A stretch of DNA of 56,609 bases from an uncultured Candidatus Saccharibacteria bacterium (GTDB lineage Bacteria > Patescibacteriota > Minisyncoccia > Phycocordibacterales > UBA2100), in assembly GCA_964356695.1 (NCBI GenBank), contig CAYHIZ010000001.1, forward strand, positions 1 to 56,609. The letters run 5' to 3'. How positions within the stretch are numbered: the stretch's first letter is position 1; the number at the start of each line of letters is the position of its first letter. The notes beneath the pieces are model-generated. The model saw nothing but the letters and a program-made list of their open reading frames with translations. It had not been told where the DNA came from and did not search any database. This document shows, piece after piece, positions 6,254-19,001 of the stretch. The translations under genes were made by a program, and so were the position numbers.

Positions 6254-7018
6254 TCACAAATGAATCGTTGCAGTGATGATCGCCAGCGCATAAGCGATGC
6301 GCAATACAATCTTCTGCAGTGCGCCGGAGAATTTCGAGAGATGTATTAGAAGTATGCCTCCGACGTATCCTCCTGCTAGTGATCCGACAGACCACGGCAA
6401 CCACACGGCAAACAATAAATTCCCACCATACCAGTGTGTGACAACGGCGACAGAGACAAGCATGAATTCTACAAACCGTGCCTGAATCTTGACTAGTGCG
6501 ATGTCGGTATCTGTTGGATGTTTCAATCGAAGCAGTGCGACAAGAATAATGCCAATGCCTGCGCCAAATGTTCCCGCGTAGAGCCCGCACAAAAATGCGG
6601 CAACATGAAACGTTCTACCGCTAATGAAAGCAGTGATCCGCGGTGCGCTTTCTGCAAACACAACCGCAAAAACAGTCGCGGGCAAAATCCATGCCTGACT
6701 CAAATGTGATATCAAAAATGCCCCAAGTATGGTGCCGAGAAAAGCAAACGTAGACACTTCTATGTTTCTCACATATTCAATGCTTCCGCGTGTTGTCCAC
6801 GTCGATCCGATACTGCGGAACAAAGAACCGACTTTTATATTGCCTACGATTGAGCCAAACGAAAGCGACGGAAACACCCACTGCATGAGCGGAACCGAGA
6901 AGAATAGTCCTCCTCCAAATACGACACTCAAAACGCCGACGACAAAACCGCCCGTAACAAGCATCACGTTGCCAGTATCTGCAATTGACAGCATGCTCGA
7001 GATCAAGAATGCCTCCAT
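6254..7018 (-). CDS. TauE/SafE (TSUP, DUF81) family membrane transporter
   Basis: Polytopic membrane protein of about 250 aa. Gly-rich first helix pair (GVLSVVFGGGLFFSVPLM) and a repeated half, typical of TSUP family proteins. Confidence 0.6.
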   Translation of the reverse strand: MEAFLISSMLSIADTGNVMLVTGGFVVGVLSVVFGGGLFFSVPLMQWVFPSLSFGSIVGNIKVGSLFRSIGSTWTTRGSIEYVRNIEVSTFAFLGTILGAFLISHLSQAWILPATVFAVVFAESAPRITAFISGRTFHVAAFLCGLYAGTFGAGIGIILVALLRLKHPTDTDIALVKIQARFVEFMLVSVAVVTHWYGGNLLFAVWLPWSVGSLAGGYVGGILLIHLSKFSGALQKIVLRIAYALAIITATIHL

Positions 7019-12947: not shown

Positions 12948-13075
12948 GTAACCACTCACCCGTTCCCAGCGCGCCGTCTTTGCGAGCGGAGCGAAGCAAT
13001 CTAGAGTCCCACCTCATGCTTCTGGATCGCTTCGCAAAGCTCGCGAAGACGAATACTGGGAATAGCTGACCTTAC
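12948..13075. repeat. Palindromic MITE-like intergenic repeat, copy 1 of 4
   Basis: GTAAC..CGTTCCCAG..CGTCTTTGCGAGC..GCGAAGCAATCTAGA..(loop)..TCTGGATCGCTTCGC..GCTCGCGAAGACG..CTGGGAA..CTTAC. The element is self-complementary end to end. It is closely similar to 48338-48467 and, in inverted orientation, to 50343-50565. Confidence 0.8.
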
Positions 13076-13148
13076 CAATCTTCTCTTTGGAAATACGCCC
13101 GCGCGGGAGTACATTACTATGGCGCTTAAACGTATGCGTGAGTCGCGC

Positions 13149-13219
13149 GCGCCCATAGCTCAATGGTAGAGCGACCGTCTTATACACGGTCTACCTAGGT
13201 TCGATTCCTAGTGGGCGTA
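13149..13219 (+). tRNA. tRNA with anticodon TAT (UAU; predicted tRNA-Ile decoding AUA)
   Basis: 71-nt cloverleaf folded by hand. Acceptor GCGCCCA/TGGGCGT (G1-U72 wobble); D arm GCTC-AATGGTA-GAGC; anticodon arm ACCGT-CTTATAC-ACGGT; 4-nt variable loop; T arm CTAGG-TTCGATT-CCTAG; discriminator A. CCA is not encoded. Confidence 0.8.
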
Positions 13220-13220
13220 C

Positions 13221-13310
13221 ATGATCGAAATTCGAATGAATCCTACTCTTTCCATTTTGGAAAAAATCGCTGGAGCGCTTGGAATTTCAAGCAGTGAACT
13301 TTTGAAATAA
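13221..13310 (+). pseudogene. 3' remnant of an XRE-family HTH regulator gene
   Basis: A 29-codon ORF, MIEIRMNPTLSILEKIAGALGISSSELLK*. It corresponds only to the last helices of an XRE HTH domain (..NPSLxTLxKIAxALGxSxxELx). It begins 1 nt after the tRNA 3' end. Confidence 0.4.
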
Positions 13311-13314
13311 AGTT

Positions 13315-14004
13315 ATGAAATTTGAATTAAAAAAATACAACAGAGTCACTCCAAAAGATTATCGAAATGTCACTGATGAAGAGCTGATCAATGATTTACG
13401 CCAAGTTGCTAATAAATTACAGAAGGATTCTGTAACCCACAATGAATATGATCAACAAGGTAAATTTAATAGCCATATTTTTGGTAGAAGATTTGGTGGT
13501 TGGCTAAACGCACTTGAAAAAGCTGGTCTCCAAAAGACGAGGAATTATAATATAACTGACGAGGAGGCATTTCAAAATTTAGAAAATATTTGGATAAAGT
13601 TAGGACGGCAACCTATACGCGAAGAATTGTATGCACCACTTTCAAAGTACAGCGGTGCGTTCTATGAATACCATTTTGGCACATGGCAAAAGGCATTAGA
13701 AAAATTTGTCGCTTATATCAACAATGAGGAAAATATCTCATCCGAGGAATCAATAAAAAATTTGGAAATTGAGCCAAATACTCAACATAAAACTACAAGA
13801 GGTGTAAATGAGCGGTTACGATTTATTGTTATGAGGCGAGATAATTTCAAATGCAAAGATTGCGGTCGGTCACCCGCAACTGACCCGAGTATCATTCTTC
13901 ATGTTGACCACTTTAAGGCGTGGGCAAAAGGTGGCGAAACAATTTTAGAAAATTTACAAACACTTTGCTCGGTATGTAATCGCGGCAAAAGCGATTTAGA
14001 ATAA
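13315..14004 (+). CDS. HNH endonuclease with two N-terminal homing-endonuclease-associated repeats
   Basis: Two repeats (ELINDLRQVANKL..THNEYDQQGKFNSHIFGRRFGGWLNALEKAG and FQNLENIWIKLGRQP..YSGAFYEYHFGTWQKALEKF). C-terminal HNH motif CKDCGRS...HVDHFKAWAKGGETILENLQTLCSVCNRGK. Confidence 0.8.
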   Translation: MKFELKKYNRVTPKDYRNVTDEELINDLRQVANKLQKDSVTHNEYDQQGKFNSHIFGRRFGGWLNALEKAGLQKTRNYNITDEEAFQNLENIWIKLGRQPIREELYAPLSKYSGAFYEYHFGTWQKALEKFVAYINNEENISSEESIKNLEIEPNTQHKTTRGVNERLRFIVMRRDNFKCKDCGRSPATDPSIILHVDHFKAWAKGGETILENLQTLCSVCNRGKSDLE

Positions 14005-14008
14005 AATT

Positions 14009-14557
14009 ATGGCAATCAATATTACTTATTTTGTACACGGAACGACTACAGATAACGAAAAAGAAATTTCGTCCAGCTGGAAAGATGTTGAACTTTCGGA
14101 ACTCGGCGTGAAGCAATCTGTAGAACTCAAAGAGCAGACCAAAGACAAGAAATTTGATGTCGTGTTCTGTTCCGACTTACAACGCGCTCACAATTCGGCA
14201 AAACTCGCGTGGAAGGGCGTGTATGAGATTATTCCCGACGCACGGCTTCGTGAGTGTAATTACGGCACTTTGAACGGCGCGTCTTCGGATATTGTTGAAC
14301 CGATGCAAGAGGATGAAGCAATTACGAAGCCGTTTCCTGATGGCGAAAGTTATGAGGATGTGAAAACCCGCGTAGTGGACTTTCTCGACTTCCTAAAGAA
14401 AAACTACGACGGCAAGCATATCGCAATCGTCGCGCATAAAGCGTCGCAACTTTCGCTCGATGTATTACTCAAAGACAAGACGTGGAAACAAGCCCTTGCC
14501 GAGGATTGGCGAAAAACAAAGGCATGGCGGCCTGGTTGGGAATACGAAGTTAAATAA
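14009..14557 (+). CDS. Histidine phosphatase (phosphoglycerate-mutase-like) family protein
   Basis: The N-terminal ITYFVHGTTTDNE corresponds to the RHG catalytic motif region. FCSDLQRAHNSA and IVAHKASQ (second catalytic His region) follow. The start lies 4 nt after the HNH stop. Confidence 0.7.
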   Translation: MAINITYFVHGTTTDNEKEISSSWKDVELSELGVKQSVELKEQTKDKKFDVVFCSDLQRAHNSAKLAWKGVYEIIPDARLRECNYGTLNGASSDIVEPMQEDEAITKPFPDGESYEDVKTRVVDFLDFLKKNYDGKHIAIVAHKASQLSLDVLLKDKTWKQALAEDWRKTKAWRPGWEYEVK

Positions 14558-14559
14558 AA

Positions 14560-15270
14560 ATGACAGGAATATTTTTTGCACATCCACATACACTTCTAGA
14601 TCAAGTTGGTAAGGTTTTAGAAAAAGTTGGCGCTGAAAAATTCTTTACAAGCCCGGATGAGGAAGTGAGGAAAGCCCGAGAGGGATTCGCGGCATATTTT
14701 TTTACTCTTACCTTGAAGCAATATCTACGGAGAGATTGGTGGTTGGCGCAGTACGACCAAGTCACTAGAGCTTACCCAGATTTTGATTTTATATCTTTTG
14801 CAGAAAATCCTAACGATATGAAGATGGAGTCTGTAGAGCTAGCCGGCATTTACCCCCATTTCAAATCTTTTGACGAAGCCCTAAAAGTTGTTGAGAAGAA
14901 ACAGAAACAGTATGGCGACAAGCCAGTAAAGTTTAGTTTGTTAGTCTTTGTAAATCACGAAAAAAGCGAGGAGTGGATTAATCTGCTTAGAAAGAGCGTG
15001 AGTAGTGAGCACCCATTCTTGAGCATATGGACAATACACTTGAGGTTTAAGAAGGGCGGAAAGGAAGTCGGGAAGGCGGTTGCCCAAAGGATTGTGCCTT
15101 TACCGGGTCTGAGAGTTGAAACCGACACCGATGATTCTGAAATACATAAACGACAGCCTCTCCCAAGTTATATGGAGCAACATCAGGAAGGTGAACGCAT
15201 TTATATTACATTCAAGGCCGAGTTTATTGATAAAATGCGGAAAAAAGTTGGAGCGTTACAGGCTCTCTAA
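14560..15270 (+). CDS. Hypothetical protein (236 aa), third gene of the HNH/phosphatase operon
   Basis: The start lies 2 nt after the phosphatase stop. No family recognised. The segment YPDFDFISF...MESVELAGIY...LLVFVNHEKS is weakly reminiscent of a PD-(D/E)xK-like strand pattern; this is speculative. Confidence 0.5.
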   Translation: MTGIFFAHPHTLLDQVGKVLEKVGAEKFFTSPDEEVRKAREGFAAYFFTLTLKQYLRRDWWLAQYDQVTRAYPDFDFISFAENPNDMKMESVELAGIYPHFKSFDEALKVVEKKQKQYGDKPVKFSLLVFVNHEKSEEWINLLRKSVSSEHPFLSIWTIHLRFKKGGKEVGKAVAQRIVPLPGLRVETDTDDSEIHKRQPLPSYMEQHQEGERIYITFKAEFIDKMRKKVGALQAL

Positions 15271-15327
15271 GGGAACCCCGCCCGCGATCCTTTCTGCCCT
15301 TCGCGGGCGGGATTGCACGCAAATGGG
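15271..15327 (+). repeat. 57-bp direct repeat A (hairpin-containing), immediately after a stop codon
   Basis: GGGAACCCCGCCCGCGATCCTTTCTGCCCTTCGCGGGCGGGATTGCACGCAAATGGG. It contains the inverted repeat CCCGCCCGCGA/TCGCGGGCGGG. An ungapped hand alignment to 17222-17278 gives 46/57 identical positions. Confidence 0.75.
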
Positions 15328-15343
15328 AGATCGGTGTGAGGGC

Positions 15344-15368
15344 AAAATAGGCATTTTATGCCTATTTT
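15344..15368. terminator. Perfect 11-3-11 palindrome, candidate bidirectional intrinsic terminator
   Basis: AAAATAGGCAT-TTT-ATGCCTATTTT. The A-run and T-run flank a GGCAT/ATGCC core. It lies between the 3-gene operon and the ATPase gene. Confidence 0.45.
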
Positions 15369-15468
15369 ACTCAATTATCCACAAACTATTGTGGAAATCA
15401 TTGCAATTTAATCTATTATCTGCTAGGATACGGTAGGTCGAGATAATAAGCGTAAAACCTATAAAAAT

Positions 15469-16677
15469 ATGATTCATTCAATTGCATGTAAAAACTTCTA
15501 TTCATTTGGGGAGGAGACGTCCCTTGATTTTGAGGTAAACGGCAATGCCCCAGAAAATAACGGCTATTTTGTAGCCAAGTCAGGCGTACGGCTCTCAAAG
15601 GTCGAAACGGTCGTAGGACCAAATGCGTCCGGTAAAACTAACTTGCTAAAAGTTTTGCCGTTTTTGAAGTGGCTGATCATTGATTCGTTCAACATGAAGC
15701 CCGAGAATCCGATTGTCGTTCAGCCGTTCGCATTTGGCGACGAAAAGAATGAGCCGACAGAGCTGTCAGTGGTTTTTGAGGTTGATGGAAAAGTGTATAC
15801 TTACGCATTTACCATCACTAAAGAGAAGGTTTTAAGCGAGGAATTAAAGCTCACCAGTTTTGCAAAGGAGAAGAAATCTACCAAGAAAATTTTCTCTCGA
15901 AGCTGGAATGTGAAAGAAAGTCGGTATGATTTTGAAGGAGATAATTTTGATCTGCCAAAAGGCTTTGAAAATCTCTTGCGTTCAAATGCAAGTGTTATTG
16001 GTACTGCCGCCCGACTTAATCACGCGGAAAGTCAGGCCATTGCGACATACTGGGGACAGATTGAAACAAATGTCATTGAGGCAGGGTGGATTGGTGATCA
16101 TTTGCTCCCCAATTCTATTGCCCAACTCGGAGGAGCCTTTGATTTCTTTAGTGAAAACAGTGCGCTTAAACAAGAGGCGGAGAAGTTGCTTAGCCGATTT
16201 GATTTGGGGCTAAGTGGGTTCGAAATAAAGAAAGAGAAAAAGGAAAATGGTTTTTCTCTCAATGTTCGAGCGTCACATCTGTTCAATGGGCAGACACAGT
16301 ATTTACCTGTTCAATATGAGTCGTCTGGAACAAAGCAATTGTTTGTGCTGTTGAAAAGCATTCTCGCCGCCCTTGAAAAAGGAAGTGTCGCTATTATCGA
16401 TGAGTTTGATGTAAACTTGCATCCTGAAATGGTGATGGCGTTGTTTGATTTGTTCATACAGCCGGAGACGAATCCAAAAAACGCACAGCTTCTTCTAAGC
16501 ACTCATAGCCATATGCTTTTGAGCAAGCTCGATAAGTACCAGATTGTATTGGTCGAGAAGAATGAAAATGGCATAAGCGAAGCGTGGCGCTTGGACGAAA
16601 TGCTCGATGTTCGCTCTGATGATAACTATTACTCAAAATATATCGCCGGAGCGTACGGGGCTGTTCCGAATATTTAA
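15469..16677 (+). CDS. AAA_21/ABC-like ATPase (AbiLi / RloA / PARIS AriA-like)
   Basis: Walker A GPNASGKTNLLKVL, signature-like YESSGTKQLFVLL, Walker B VAIIDEFDVNLHPEM and an H-loop region LLLSTHSHMLL. Confidence 0.8.
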   Translation: MIHSIACKNFYSFGEETSLDFEVNGNAPENNGYFVAKSGVRLSKVETVVGPNASGKTNLLKVLPFLKWLIIDSFNMKPENPIVVQPFAFGDEKNEPTELSVVFEVDGKVYTYAFTITKEKVLSEELKLTSFAKEKKSTKKIFSRSWNVKESRYDFEGDNFDLPKGFENLLRSNASVIGTAARLNHAESQAIATYWGQIETNVIEAGWIGDHLLPNSIAQLGGAFDFFSENSALKQEAEKLLSRFDLGLSGFEIKKEKKENGFSLNVRASHLFNGQTQYLPVQYESSGTKQLFVLLKSILAALEKGSVAIIDEFDVNLHPEMVMALFDLFIQPETNPKNAQLLLSTHSHMLLSKLDKYQIVLVEKNENGISEAWRLDEMLDVRSDDNYYSKYIAGAYGAVPNI

Positions 16678-16679
16678 CA

Positions 16680-17222
16680 TTGAAAATTATGTCGCGAACG
16701 AATCCATACAAGAAAAAACGTCGCAGTGCCAGCCGAACTTTACTGATGTATGGCGAGGGGCTTGGTGAGGAGATGTTCCTAAAACATTTGCGTGGACTGT
16801 ATTCCCGAGATAGCGGGGTCGCAGTAACAATACGTAATGGCAAAGGTGGCACGGCAACAAACATCATCACCAATGCCGTGAATGAGCCGGGCGCGTTTGA
16901 TCGGAGGGTTGTGATTTTGGATAATGATAAAAGCAAGCAGGAAATGAACCAAGCCCGAGCAGAAGCAAGACAGCGAGGAGTTGAACTGCTTGAAAATTCT
17001 CCCTGCCTGGAGGCTACACTGCTTGCGATTTTAAGACCCGGACAATCTTTTTCCGGTAGGACTTCGGCGTGGTGCAAAAGTGAGTTTGAGTCCAACTATC
17101 TGAATAAGAAAAAGCGCACTGAGCTCGGCGAATATACTAAGTTTTTTCCAAAGGCAACACTTGATGCACAGCGCGCCAATGTTACAGAATTGAATACTCT
17201 TATTTCTCTCATGCAGAGCTAG
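16680..17222 (+). CDS. RloB-like / Toprim-like protein (AbiLii / AriB-analogous partner)
   Basis: The start lies 2 nt after the ATPase stop (TTG at 16680, or ATG at 16689). TLLMYGEGLGEEMFLKHL resembles the RloB N-terminal EG..E Toprim motif, and VVILDNDKS is a DxD-like motif. Confidence 0.6.
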   Translation: MKIMSRTNPYKKKRRSASRTLLMYGEGLGEEMFLKHLRGLYSRDSGVAVTIRNGKGGTATNIITNAVNEPGAFDRRVVILDNDKSKQEMNQARAEARQRGVELLENSPCLEATLLAILRPGQSFSGRTSAWCKSEFESNYLNKKKRTELGEYTKFFPKATLDAQRANVTELNTLISLMQS

Positions 17223-17278
17223 GGAGTCACGCCCACGATTTCTTTTGCCCTTCGCGGGCGGGAGTGCACGCGAACGGG
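17222..17278 (+). repeat. 57-bp direct repeat B (partner of 15271-15327), immediately after a stop codon
   Basis: GGGAGTCACGCCCACGATTTCTTTTGCCCTTCGCGGGCGGGAGTGCACGCGAACGGG. Positions 26-50 are nearly identical to repeat A. The left hairpin arm is degenerate. Confidence 0.75.
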
Positions 17279-17357
17279 GGGTCTTCTGACTCTGAGAGTC
17301 ATCAGACTCGAATGAGGTGTTCGAAAAAGGTTCGAGCAAAGTGTATGATTACAGTAC

Positions 17358-17783
17358 ATGAGTTTGATGCTAAAAACCGAAAGTGCTGGGGGTATCGTCC
17401 GAAATGCGCGTGGCGAAATCGTGATTGTGCGAAACGGATGCGGTGATCCGTGGTGGGGATTTCCCAAGGGCCACATTGATGCTGGGGAAGATGCTTTAAC
17501 TGCGGCTAGGCGCGAAATCACCGAAGAAACAGGATTGCATGATCTCGTGCTTGTAAAAGAACTTGGTTCGTATGGGCGTTACAAAGGGAAACCGGGGGGA
17601 GGGGACGATACGAGTGAATATAAAACGATCACGATGTTTCTTTTTCTAACTCACGAAGAAAAGCTCGCGCCGACTGATCCGCACAATCCGGAAGCGCGTT
17701 GGATTTCTCCCGATATTTTAGTAGAAACACTTACGCATCCAAAAGACAGGGAATTTTTCATACAGGTACGCTGTTTGATATGA
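17358..17783 (+). CDS. NUDIX hydrolase
   Basis: Nudix box GFPKGHIDAGEDALTAARREITEETGL. Confidence 0.85.
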   Translation: MSLMLKTESAGGIVRNARGEIVIVRNGCGDPWWGFPKGHIDAGEDALTAARREITEETGLHDLVLVKELGSYGRYKGKPGGGDDTSEYKTITMFLFLTHEEKLAPTDPHNPEARWISPDILVETLTHPKDREFFIQVRCLI

Positions 17784-17843
17784 TTTTCACAATACTTGTG
17801 GATTCGTGGTTGCATGGTTTTCAGTACATGCGACAATGTACGT

Positions 17844-18977
17844 ATGAAAATCACTAATAGTAATACAATTGTGCTAGTAGGCTTGTCGTTTTTGACTGCA
17901 TGCGCCTTAGTGTTTGCCGTTCCTGCGTACGCGCAATCACAAACTTACGTATCACCTTCGACCGCCGATCAGCTTCGCGATCAGGCGCAGGCACTGCTCG
18001 CACGCGTACAGCAACTTCAAGGACAACTTGGAGAGGGCGATAGCGCTCCCGTCATAAAAGCCGGCACTGGATCCGACTCAAGCTCGTGCCCTCTTATCGG
18101 CAGAAGTCTCAAAAAAGGATCGTCCGGCGATGACGTAGGACGTCTCCAGCAATTTCTAGCTCGAGACTCCGAGATTTACCGCGAAAGACTTGTGACTGGC
18201 TATTATGGCGGGCTTACCGAAGCGGCGGTAAGGCGATGGCAGGTAAAATACAACATTGTTTCTTCAGGATCACCGGACAGCACTGGTTACGGCGTTGTTG
18301 GACCGCGTACAGCGGCCGCGATCGCGATTTTGTGTACGACGGGAAGTTATGGCGGAGTCCCCGGTCCAAATAGCGCACCCGCTCCGGTTGGCGGATTCAT
18401 CCAGATAACCCCGATTGCAGGGAACGCCCCACTGGATGTCGCAATTCAAGCAACGGTCAATACTGTCAATTCTTGCAGTGGCGCAACATACATACTCGAT
18501 TACGGTGACAGAACCCCGCCCACGTACATCGCGGTACCGGTCGGAGACTGCACACAGCTGGTGCAAGCGTTGGCACATCAATACCAAAACAGTGGCACAT
18601 ACCTTGTAACCCTTTCGGCTGGCAGACACAGGACATCCGCCACCGTCCAAGTGAATGGCGCAGGTCAACCCCCACCCGGCCCCGCCCCATCTCCTAACCC
18701 CACAACCTCTACGACATGGGCAATAGTATCCGTCACTCCGGCGGTAGGAGGCAATCCTTTTGCGGTTTCTTTGCAGATCGCGTATCCGAGATGCGTCACA
18801 CATTCCATTGATTGGGGAGATGGGAACATTCCGGCAAGCGTCTTACCGCAGGGCGACTGCTCGGTCAACGGCTCAAGCACGGCAAATCACATCTATTATG
18901 CCGGTGGGAATTACACGATATCTTTGCGTGACGAGAATGGTGCCGTCAAGGCTACGGCAGGAGTCACGATCATTTAA
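17844..18977 (+). CDS. Secreted protein with peptidoglycan-binding (PG_binding_1-like) domain and PKD-like C-terminal repeats
   Basis: Signal peptide (IVLVGLSFLTACALVFAVPAYAQ). LKKGSSGDDVGRLQQFLA...GYYGGLTEAAVRRWQ. Two beta-rich modules carry LDYGDRTPP and IDWGDGN. Start at the ATG at 17844; the ORF track starts at 17796. Confidence 0.6.
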   Translation: MKITNSNTIVLVGLSFLTACALVFAVPAYAQSQTYVSPSTADQLRDQAQALLARVQQLQGQLGEGDSAPVIKAGTGSDSSSCPLIGRSLKKGSSGDDVGRLQQFLARDSEIYRERLVTGYYGGLTEAAVRRWQVKYNIVSSGSPDSTGYGVVGPRTAAAIAILCTTGSYGGVPGPNSAPAPVGGFIQITPIAGNAPLDVAIQATVNTVNSCSGATYILDYGDRTPPTYIAVPVGDCTQLVQALAHQYQNSGTYLVTLSAGRHRTSATVQVNGAGQPPPGPAPSPNPTTSTTWAIVSVTPAVGGNPFAVSLQIAYPRCVTHSIDWGDGNIPASVLPQGDCSVNGSSTANHIYYAGGNYTISLRDENGAVKATAGVTII

Positions 18978-19001
18978 TCAATCGTAGAGCATGCGACACT
19001 C

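Follow-up and report, generated by a model that had tools for sequence, protein, structure and literature searches.

A hairpin-headed junction element at the ends of an AbiL gene pair and other accessory genes in an uncultured Patescibacteria genome

The stretch of DNA analysed here, referred to as the window (56,609 nucleotides, contig CAYHIZ010000001.1 of assembly GCA_964356695.1, from an uncultured Candidatus Saccharibacteria bacterium, a tiny organism of groundwater type), carries beside a tRNA-Ile gene a two-gene system of the anti-phage AbiL type which is bracketed by two direct repeats, A and B. It was found that each repeat is a copy of the 5'-terminal ~60 nt of a non-coding element, mosaic in build and up to ~800 nt long, recurring with a sharp 5' edge at the ends of many unrelated genes. 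The reading favoured here, to which a probability of roughly 0.6 is given, is that two cassettes are stacked at a tRNA-Ile hot spot, one trailed by repeat A and the other by repeat B as its junction element, and that the element is a portable intergenic unit. The coordinates of the features are collected in Table 1; genomes, contigs and loci used for comparison are cited by working numbers preceded by G, C and L.

The repeats at 15271-15327 and 17222-17278 are identical at 46 of 57 positions in an ungapped alignment, which reproduces the count of a preliminary description of this DNA, and at 49 of 62 when the alignment is extended to 15332 and 17283. The intact hairpin assigned by that description to repeat A is an 11-bp GC stem (15277-15287 with 15301-15311) closed by a 13-nt loop; the stem of repeat B has two mismatches. 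Both repeats had been placed directly after a stop codon, and for copy A this is correct. The AbiLii stop codon, however, lies at 17220-17222 and not at 17219-17221, and copy B overlaps the G of this TAG by one base. A BLAST search of the 1.03-Mb, 140-contig assembly with copy A recovered copy B (E = 8.8e-10) and no further full-length match, and a profile search added a third, more diverged copy (C77:993-1051), giving three in the genome. Downstream of copy B the remainder of a short element was delimited by BLAST to the 3' end of the G285 and G114 elements and by motif comparison; its 3' module includes a promoter-like match at 17321-17349. Copy B and this remainder therefore form a miniature of the whole element, with its hairpins and its promoter-like end.

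No intrinsic terminator was called by the scanner at either repeat, because the hairpins have no T-tract, and with only three copies in the genome the reading of the repeat as an intrinsic terminator was rejected. The preliminary description had named a generic terminator following many unrelated genes as the finding that would speak against it. Within the present genome nothing of the kind was seen, but across genomes the element does follow many genes, and in this modified sense the objection holds. Neither the repeats nor the full-length copies, in the window and 13 related loci, matched anything in Rfam at E <= 1 or at the gathering thresholds, and identity with a known RNA family was rejected on that ground.

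The 57-bp repeat matches, at 80-89% identity, the start of a long non-coding stretch in other families of the same order, which is of Parcubacteria type (genome G033, for instance, is a Candidatus Zambryskibacteria metagenome-assembled genome, MAG). The best-defined full copies, of ~800 nt, are those of G285 (L030:5509-6303) and G114, which are 81% identical over 826 nt and contain no conserved open reading frame (ORF). Of the 401 genomes sampled from the order, 125 contain pieces of the element, frequently close to the end of a contig. The exact 5' motif GGGAGYCCCGCYCGC, from which the copies of the present genome deviate and which therefore does not count them, was found at 16 sites in 12 of 400 other genomes, one or two in each, and its reversed control at none; for the element overall the number is one to three per genome. 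At least 120 metagenome contigs were matched by a stricter hairpin pattern. The same pattern gave no module copy in IMG/VR, for which reason a phage origin was rejected, and a pattern scan of the whole collection of isolate genomes and MAGs was overwhelmed by matches due to chance in GC-rich genomes. The high identity of the element across families points to horizontal spread. The repeats had been regarded at first as a site special to this insertion; instead they are copies of a lineage-wide gene-end element that follows many unrelated genes, and they are not a target duplication.

The 5' edge of the element is constant in 20 genome copies, (Y)TA/GGGAG (the stroke marks the edge), usually with TA before it, and usually lies at, or a few bases from, the stop codon of the upstream gene. 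The metagenome figures given here hold among the 120 matches listed, 110 of which have at least 300 nt upstream and served for the ORF counts. A co-directional ORF of at least 60 aa ends within 60 nt upstream in 82 of the 110; its TAG stop overlaps the first G of the element in 27, and 12 more show a gap of 0 to +1. An open frame continues into the module in 15 of the 110, and these may be chance frames in GC-rich sequence. The triplet preceding the element is CTA or TTA in 52 of 120. Of the 120 contigs, 66 break off at most 900 nt downstream of the point where the module starts and 25 at most 900 nt upstream of it; this excess is suggestive of DNA behind the module that is repeated or variable within populations.

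The genes that end at the element are diverse, and many of them have no known family. In the present genome they encode AbiLii, the 236-aa protein and a DUF5677 protein, and in the same-genus genome G020 the Shedu protein SduA. Elsewhere in the order they include Lamassu LmuB, HsdR, a type III Res (with a Cas2-like gene), a histidine phosphatase, an ATP-grasp enzyme and others. Among the metagenome matches listed, SduA was met five times, AAA_21/AriA-like ATPases three times, DUF4254 six times and DUF2130 three times, together with HsdR, GmrSD, a KAP NTPase, ThsB-TIR, Schlafen-like and reverse transcriptase-protease proteins, candidate defence families and a few housekeeping genes.

A selfish, non-autonomous mobile DNA of the miniature inverted-repeat transposable element (MITE) or palindrome-associated transposable element (PATE) type, moving in single- or double-stranded form and inserting after YTA, would account for several of these features and is considered an unlikely alternative. 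Such an element would land in TAA or TAG stops, its own first G rebuilding the TAG, and copies A and B would be independent insertions or remnants whose position on either side of AbiL is incidental. The sharp 5' edge, the preference for CTA or TTA, the subterminal hairpin 7 nt inside the edge and the sporadic occurrence of one to three copies per genome at 80-90% identity across families are all in its favour, as are the truncated or interrupted copies in G179, G110 and the contig C77 of the present genome. IS200/IS605-type Y1 domains were moreover detected at three sites of the present genome (Table 1) and in all four of the other element-bearing genomes first checked. However, 228 of the 401 genomes of the order carry Y1_Tnp, and so do 10 of the 12 that have the exact motif, which is no meaningful enrichment, so that the link to a Y1 transposase is not diagnostic because the domain is too common in the order, and no Y1_Tnp adjoins an element. 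Neither a matching right end nor a target duplication could be defined, the copy number is very low for a MITE, and the co-directionality of at least 75% of the copies with the upstream gene, together with the outward promoter-like end, fits a role in expression equally well. The Y1_Tnp domains of the order lie mostly in open frames of ~225-245 aa, and no TnpB/Cas12f-type domain was found in the genomes checked.

The element is mosaic, its parts being found separately, inverted, duplicated and truncated, and it contains a perfect internal inverted repeat of 22-24 bp and ends in ~35 nt of promoter-like sequence. Its 3' part occurs also as inverted pairs that flank 3-7 kb in several genomes. Two forms of hairpin 1 were seen, CCCGCCCGCGA/TCGCGGGCGGG and CCCGCTCGCA/TGCGAGCGGG, with paired changes at two positions, the second helix varies between TGCGC/GCGCA, TGTGC/GCACA and GCACAC/GTGTGC, and an extra perfect hairpin of unrelated sequence is inserted at the same site in four copies. 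These compensatory changes would favour a conserved fold, as RNA or as single-stranded DNA. The folding of the full G285 copy is strong (z = -5.5), and this value, the compensated helices with their variable inserted hairpins and the lack of a long conserved ORF could also be read to mean that the long element is the gene for a large structured non-coding RNA of cellular or defence function, copies A and B being 5' fragments that decayed as the island was rearranged. Such an RNA would be an undescribed one, given the absence of an Rfam match. Against it stand the mosaic build just described, the lack of the element in most genomes of the order and in all but one of the same-genus genomes searched, the occurrence of fragments only in the present genome, and the DNA-level appearance of the 22-24-bp internal inverted repeat and of a 190-bp inverted copy (99.5%) in G114; we regard an RNA gene of this kind as very improbable.

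The inverted repeat in G114 (contig C11; L029:437-626 and 6487-6676) is situated next to tRNA-Glu and encloses an XRE gene, a 294-aa gene, the type III genes Mod and Res and two thirds of the element, counted from its 5' end; inverted pairs of a like kind, spaced by 3-7 kb, were seen in G325, G039, G249 and the same-genus genome G182. About 120 nt past the full element of G285 (contig C4) a fragment at L030:6419-6449 resembles the 3' end of a G110 tRNA gene (87.5% over 32 nt) and is possibly an att-type remnant; none such follows copy B in the window. Between the element and a conserved Mur ligase gene, G179 carries the gene of a HicA toxin (77 aa) together with a partner of 122 aa, convergent to the element (L032:5903-6504); this Mur ligase gene also adjoins the element in G285 and G114.

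The comparison of homologous loci showed where the travelling units end. The 236-aa gene and repeat A together are 91% identical over 784 nt to a segment of G179:C14, from another family, in which the 236-aa homologue has an HNH gene before it and a longer, interrupted element copy after it, and AbiL is missing. The AbiL block (15344-17221) was compared with four other AbiL loci (L164/L330, L328 and L332, L330 being G051/L330) in three other contexts, and the DNA homology extended in each case from 15344 to 17215-17226, that is, to the stop codon. The upstream neighbours all differ (methyltransferase, GmrSD/HNH, HsdS). L330 and L332 likewise show TAG/GGAG at the end of AbiLii, followed by the element, from which hairpin 1 is absent in both; the copy in L332 has a length of ~830 nt. 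The AbiL block thus appears with the same two ends in four independent contexts, which supports the cassette-like layout seen in the preliminary description, and judged by these alignments repeats A and B belong to two separately travelling blocks.

An exchange of single genes was observed between C77:1-1881 (L191) of the present genome and L032:7128-8077 (G179:C14). The 3' end of the HNH gene is 91.6% and the element 85.7% identical, and the ORF between these shared flanks encodes a DUF5677 protein of 271 aa in the former and a 233-aa homologue of the 236-aa protein in the latter; homology of the DUF5677 protein to the 236-aa protein was rejected (E = 0.93). One break point lies within ~20 nt of the start codon and the other at the stop codon. 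Downstream of the element, C77 carries an antitoxin-type gene of XRE helix-turn-helix (HTH) + SocA/Panacea make-up and, besides it, an ORF of 131 aa.

Direct repeats that bracket exactly one functional module, with the AbiL block ending within ~12 nt of their inner edges, could also be attL/attR-type scars, or a long target duplication, left by the site-specific integration of an AbiL element at a 57-bp site, and in L332 a large serine recombinase gene is found just past the element that follows AbiLii. In that locus (L332:4538-7054) the AbiL cassette comes after a type I restriction-modification operon, and the recombinase has 518 aa with Resolvase, Recombinase and Zn_ribbon_recom domains. 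Scars of one integration are nevertheless quite improbable. The two repeats disagree at 19% of their positions, copy A is part of the 236-aa block, with which it is found in G179 without AbiL, other AbiL loci have no upstream copy, and the same module follows dozens of unrelated genes. Furthermore, domain searches agreed with the preliminary description that no recombinase is encoded in the window, and in particular no integrase in the island, while the genome as a whole has no serine recombinase and a single tyrosine recombinase, on contig C18.

The segment from 13221 to ~17790 is a variable accessory island at tRNA-Ile, because the same-genus genomes G020 and G023 carry this tRNA gene and a homologue of the ORF 17796-18977 without it. 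The homologue follows the tRNA at a distance of 0.4-1.6 kb (G020:C1 and G023:C47); in G020:C1 one unrelated 1-kb gene occupies the site, and in G023:C47, which is also without the island segment, an assembly gap sits there. The comparison with relatives that the preliminary description had proposed thus showed the segment to be missing in both, with the gap in G023 to be kept in mind. Inside the island the G+C content is 0.34-0.50 and in the flanks 0.50-0.59. The order of features is tRNA-Ile, XRE remnant, HNH endonuclease, phosphatase, 236-aa gene, repeat A, AbiLi, AbiLii, repeat B and NUDIX gene. Intact XRE genes are found after the tRNA, at the same place, in G114, and after the element in G110 and in C77 of the present genome.

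A tRNA or tmRNA fragment as attachment site was rejected, since the tRNA-Ile is not repeated (no fragment of at least 11 nt elsewhere in 13000-19000) and ARAGORN found no tmRNA. The NUDIX gene, which in this genome lies inside the tRNA-Ile island behind the miniature element, has homologues in same-genus relatives (L157, L158, L159) immediately behind a tRNA gene that a group I intron (Rfam Intron_gpI, 68-72 bits) interrupts; a tmRNA-like sequence upstream of these homologues proved to be this interrupted tRNA and not a tmRNA. Separate palindromic intergenic repeats of 86-87% identity, unrelated to the junction element, occur at 12946-13069/48336-48460 and 24661-24730/50366-50435, one copy being just upstream of tRNA-Ile.

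Table 1. Features of the island beside tRNA-Ile, with Y1 transposase domains found elsewhere in the genome
Feature	Position	Strand	Basis and remarks
tRNA-Ile (anticodon UAU)	13149..13220	+	ARAGORN, Rfam; left anchor of the variable island
Remnant, 3' end of an XRE-type HTH gene, 75 nt	13236..13310	+	Directly after tRNA-Ile; read from the sequence
HNH endonuclease	13315-14004	+	Pfam
Histidine phosphatase	14009-14557	+	Pfam
236-aa protein	14560-15270	+	Pfam, no family match; last gene of the block 13315..15270 that ends in repeat A
Repeat A, 5' module copy	15271..15332	+	GGGAA, hairpin, degenerate second helix; directly follows TAA 15268-15270
AbiL cassette left end	15344..15468	+	AT-rich hairpin, palindromic operator-like site 15374-15398, promoter-like region
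AbiLi, ABC/SMC-type ATPase, 402 aa	15469..16677	+	PADLOC AbiLi (PDLC02335) 6.2e-76; Pfam AAA_21 8e-31
AbiLii, small Toprim/OLD-like (RloB-like) protein	16689..17222	+	PADLOC AbiLii (PDLC02338) 2.5e-11; start most likely
Repeat B, second 5' module copy	17222..17283	+	First G is the last base of the AbiLii TAG stop (17220-17222)
Mini-element remainder	17283..17351	+	Hairpin 17283-17311; 3' promoter-like module 17318-17351, just upstream of the NUDIX start
NUDIX hydrolase gene	17358..17783	+	Pfam; last island gene
Y1_Tnp (IS200/IS605 TnpA/RAYT-like) domain matches, own genome	C20:10607-10867, C23:9479-9751, C126:264-497		

The gene pair itself consists of two adjacent, co-directional genes for an ATPase of ~400 aa and a protein of ~180 aa. 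The preliminary description had put the second gene 2 nt after the first, but its start is most likely ATG 16689, 11 nt past the ATPase stop, and not TTG 16680, because its homologues have 177-178 aa and show the same 11-nt gap. The ATPase has the motifs GPNASGKT (Walker A) and IIDEFD (Walker B) and scores 108.7 bits with AAA_21, for which the cut-off is 27; among the defence ATPase models of PADLOC AbiLi is the best, and AriA is far weaker (3.4e-33). The second protein reaches 3.9e-5 and 24.3 bits with Pfam RloB, under the cut-off of 31.5 bits. It matched no AriB model and no DUF4435, and for that reason the pair is not PARIS. The AbiL half of the earlier assignment to an AbiL/PARIS-like system is borne out, with regard to the first gene by PADLOC and with regard to the second also by its acidic residues and, weakly, by its predicted fold. 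Homologues of AbiLii (n = 360) are mostly from Patescibacteria (Taylorbacteria, Moranbacteria, Harrisonbacteria, Pacebacteria, Minisyncoccia); many at 66-87% identity carry the precomputed family PF13707, and one is named 'RloB domain-containing protein'. In 33 aligned homologues E23, D78 and D80 are invariant, as would be expected for the Toprim Glu and DxD. When the AlphaFold model (pLDDT, the predicted local distance difference test, 91.9) was compared with the PDB, the Toprim regions at the C-terminus of OLD nucleases (6NJV, 6NJW, 6NK8) came out on top, with weak scores (E ~6e-3, probability 0.96, template modelling score 0.39); a sequence search of the PDB gave nothing meaningful. The identification of the pair as a probable member of AbiL, a known two-gene anti-phage family, is supported by this evidence. 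Of 400 other genomes of the order only 6, none of them of the same family, contain AbiLi, and with one of these the present AbiLi is 84% identical in amino acids.

In a 2026 review AbiL, PARIS and RloAB are grouped as systems that pair an ABC-ATPase with a Toprim/OLD protein, the lactococcal AbiLii is superimposed on the OLD nuclease structure 6NJV, and the mechanism of AbiL is described as still unknown (PMC13064643). The present pair has the arrangement of AbiL of Lactococcus lactis (compare RloAB and the AriA/AriB of PARIS), an ABC/SMC-type ATPase gene followed by one for a small Toprim/OLD-like protein, and the best structural match of its AbiLii model, 6NJV, is the structure on which the lactococcal AbiLii was superimposed (PMC13064643). 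It differs in its host, a Patescibacteria genome, and in its RloB score under the cut-off. The pair would act as an abortive-infection system of the AbiL type, in which, by analogy with PARIS, the AbiLi sensor ATPase would restrain the AbiLii Toprim nuclease until phage infection. A promoter-like match is present at 15392-15419, within the left end of the cassette. The palindrome TTATCCACAAAcTATTGTGGAA (15374-15398), upstream of AbiLi, is conserved in L328 and L332 and in part in L330 and fits a candidate operator that travels with the AbiL cassette, which itself contains no regulator gene.

Several described systems resemble the junction element. The nearest analogue appears to be the promoter-early stem-loop (PeSL) cassettes from the hyperplastic regions of T4-type phages, described by Arbiol et al. 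in 2010 (PMC2839356). These too are short repeated intergenic units between non-essential genes, with stem-loops and a promoter where the junction element has hairpins and a promoter-like module, and both kinds of unit mark the joints of insertions, deletions and replacements, for which shuffling by recombination between copies was proposed (PMC2839356). In contrast to PeSL, the junction element is chromosomal, mosaic and up to ~800 nt long, with one to three copies per genome, its hairpins come first and its promoter-like end last, its 5' edge is fixed at or in a stop codon, and its terminator and promoter roles are predicted only. Integron cassettes, composed of an ORF and attC, and attC clusters that lack an integrase share with it a hairpin repeat at or near each stop codon and the stacking of unrelated genes in one direction. 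However, the hairpin arms CCCGCCCGCGA/TCGCGGGCGGG pair perfectly, without extrahelical bases and without the R''/R' core of attC (RYYYAAC/GTTRRRY), the arrays are of only one or two units, and the element has a long structured body and a promoter-like end. An integron cassette array was rejected, as there is no GTTRRRY core and no IntI, and the sole tyrosine recombinase is on another contig.

With REP/BIME, BOX and ERIC repeats and with PATEs derived from IS200/IS605 the element has in common the GC-rich hairpins just downstream of genes, their co-directionality, a modular build like that of BOX and the presence of Y1 genes in the genome. It differs in being low-copy and linked to variable and defence genes instead of genome-wide, and in having no significant link to Y1; membership among REP/BIME with RAYT or PATEs was rejected on account of the three copies here, the one or two elsewhere and the lack of an adjacent Y1_Tnp. 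Genomic islands integrated at tRNA genes likewise start at a tRNA 3' end, have lower G+C and are missing in close relatives, but in the present island there is neither an integrase nor, at the far border, a second copy of the tRNA 3' end (none of at least 11 nt), for which reason membership in this class was rejected, and the junction element marks internal joints.

The favoured reading, that repeats A and B trail two cassettes stacked at tRNA-Ile, suggests the following course of events. The island would have been assembled from separately acquired gene blocks, each ending in a copy of the junction element, repeat A trailing the HNH/phosphatase/236-aa block and repeat B the AbiL operon. The element most likely has two functions. 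It would insulate neighbouring cassettes transcriptionally, providing 3' hairpins for the upstream gene and a promoter for the downstream gene, and as a shared sequence it would give the homology or the recognition site for gain, loss and swapping of cassettes between genomes. That recombination at the repeat placed AbiL here, as the preliminary description proposed, is reasonable but unproven.

Some observations weigh against this course of events. Copies A and B are only 81% identical, with ~18 nt as the longest perfect stretch, and form a poor substrate for homologous recombination today. AbiL is found in L328, L330 and L332 without an upstream copy, and in L328 without any copy at all, because of which the element is not required for the movement of AbiL. 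The window, as mentioned, is without a dedicated recombinase, and the genome has the one tyrosine recombinase of C18 and no serine recombinase. The element hairpins, without a T-tract, were not called as terminators, and both the promoter and the terminator role are predictions. Finally, the covariation in the helices derives from few independent events, and much of the conservation lies in the sequence itself.

It is more speculative to regard the TA/GGGAG element as a dedicated cassette-docking device of the Patescibacteria, a structured DNA or RNA site, read by a still hypothetical enzyme, at which single genes would be captured or released exactly at their stop codons. This would amount to an integron-like stacking of defence genes, without an integron integrase or attC, in bacteria most of which have no CRISPR, and we consider it doubtful.

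The genomes of Patescibacteria, also known as the candidate phyla radiation, are tiny and have few recognisable mobile elements and little CRISPR. The hairpin element described from this locus recurs, sharply bounded, in many families where defence and other accessory cassettes are joined at their 3' side, and it comes together with cases of block-wise exchange, namely one AbiL block in four contexts and the replacement of one ORF by another between conserved flanks. The AbiL pair is an ordinary addition to a known defence family, and the junction element a variant of known intergenic and cassette repeats whose mechanism is unproven. What the analysis adds is the TA/GGGAG family, its survey and the comparison of AbiL blocks, and it is the junction element, not AbiL, that is the interesting part. 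If the element is indeed the vehicle or the recombination site of such exchanges, it would explain how defence islands are assembled in an uncultured radiation, and it would serve as a sequence tag for finding new defence genes among the many upstream genes without a known family.

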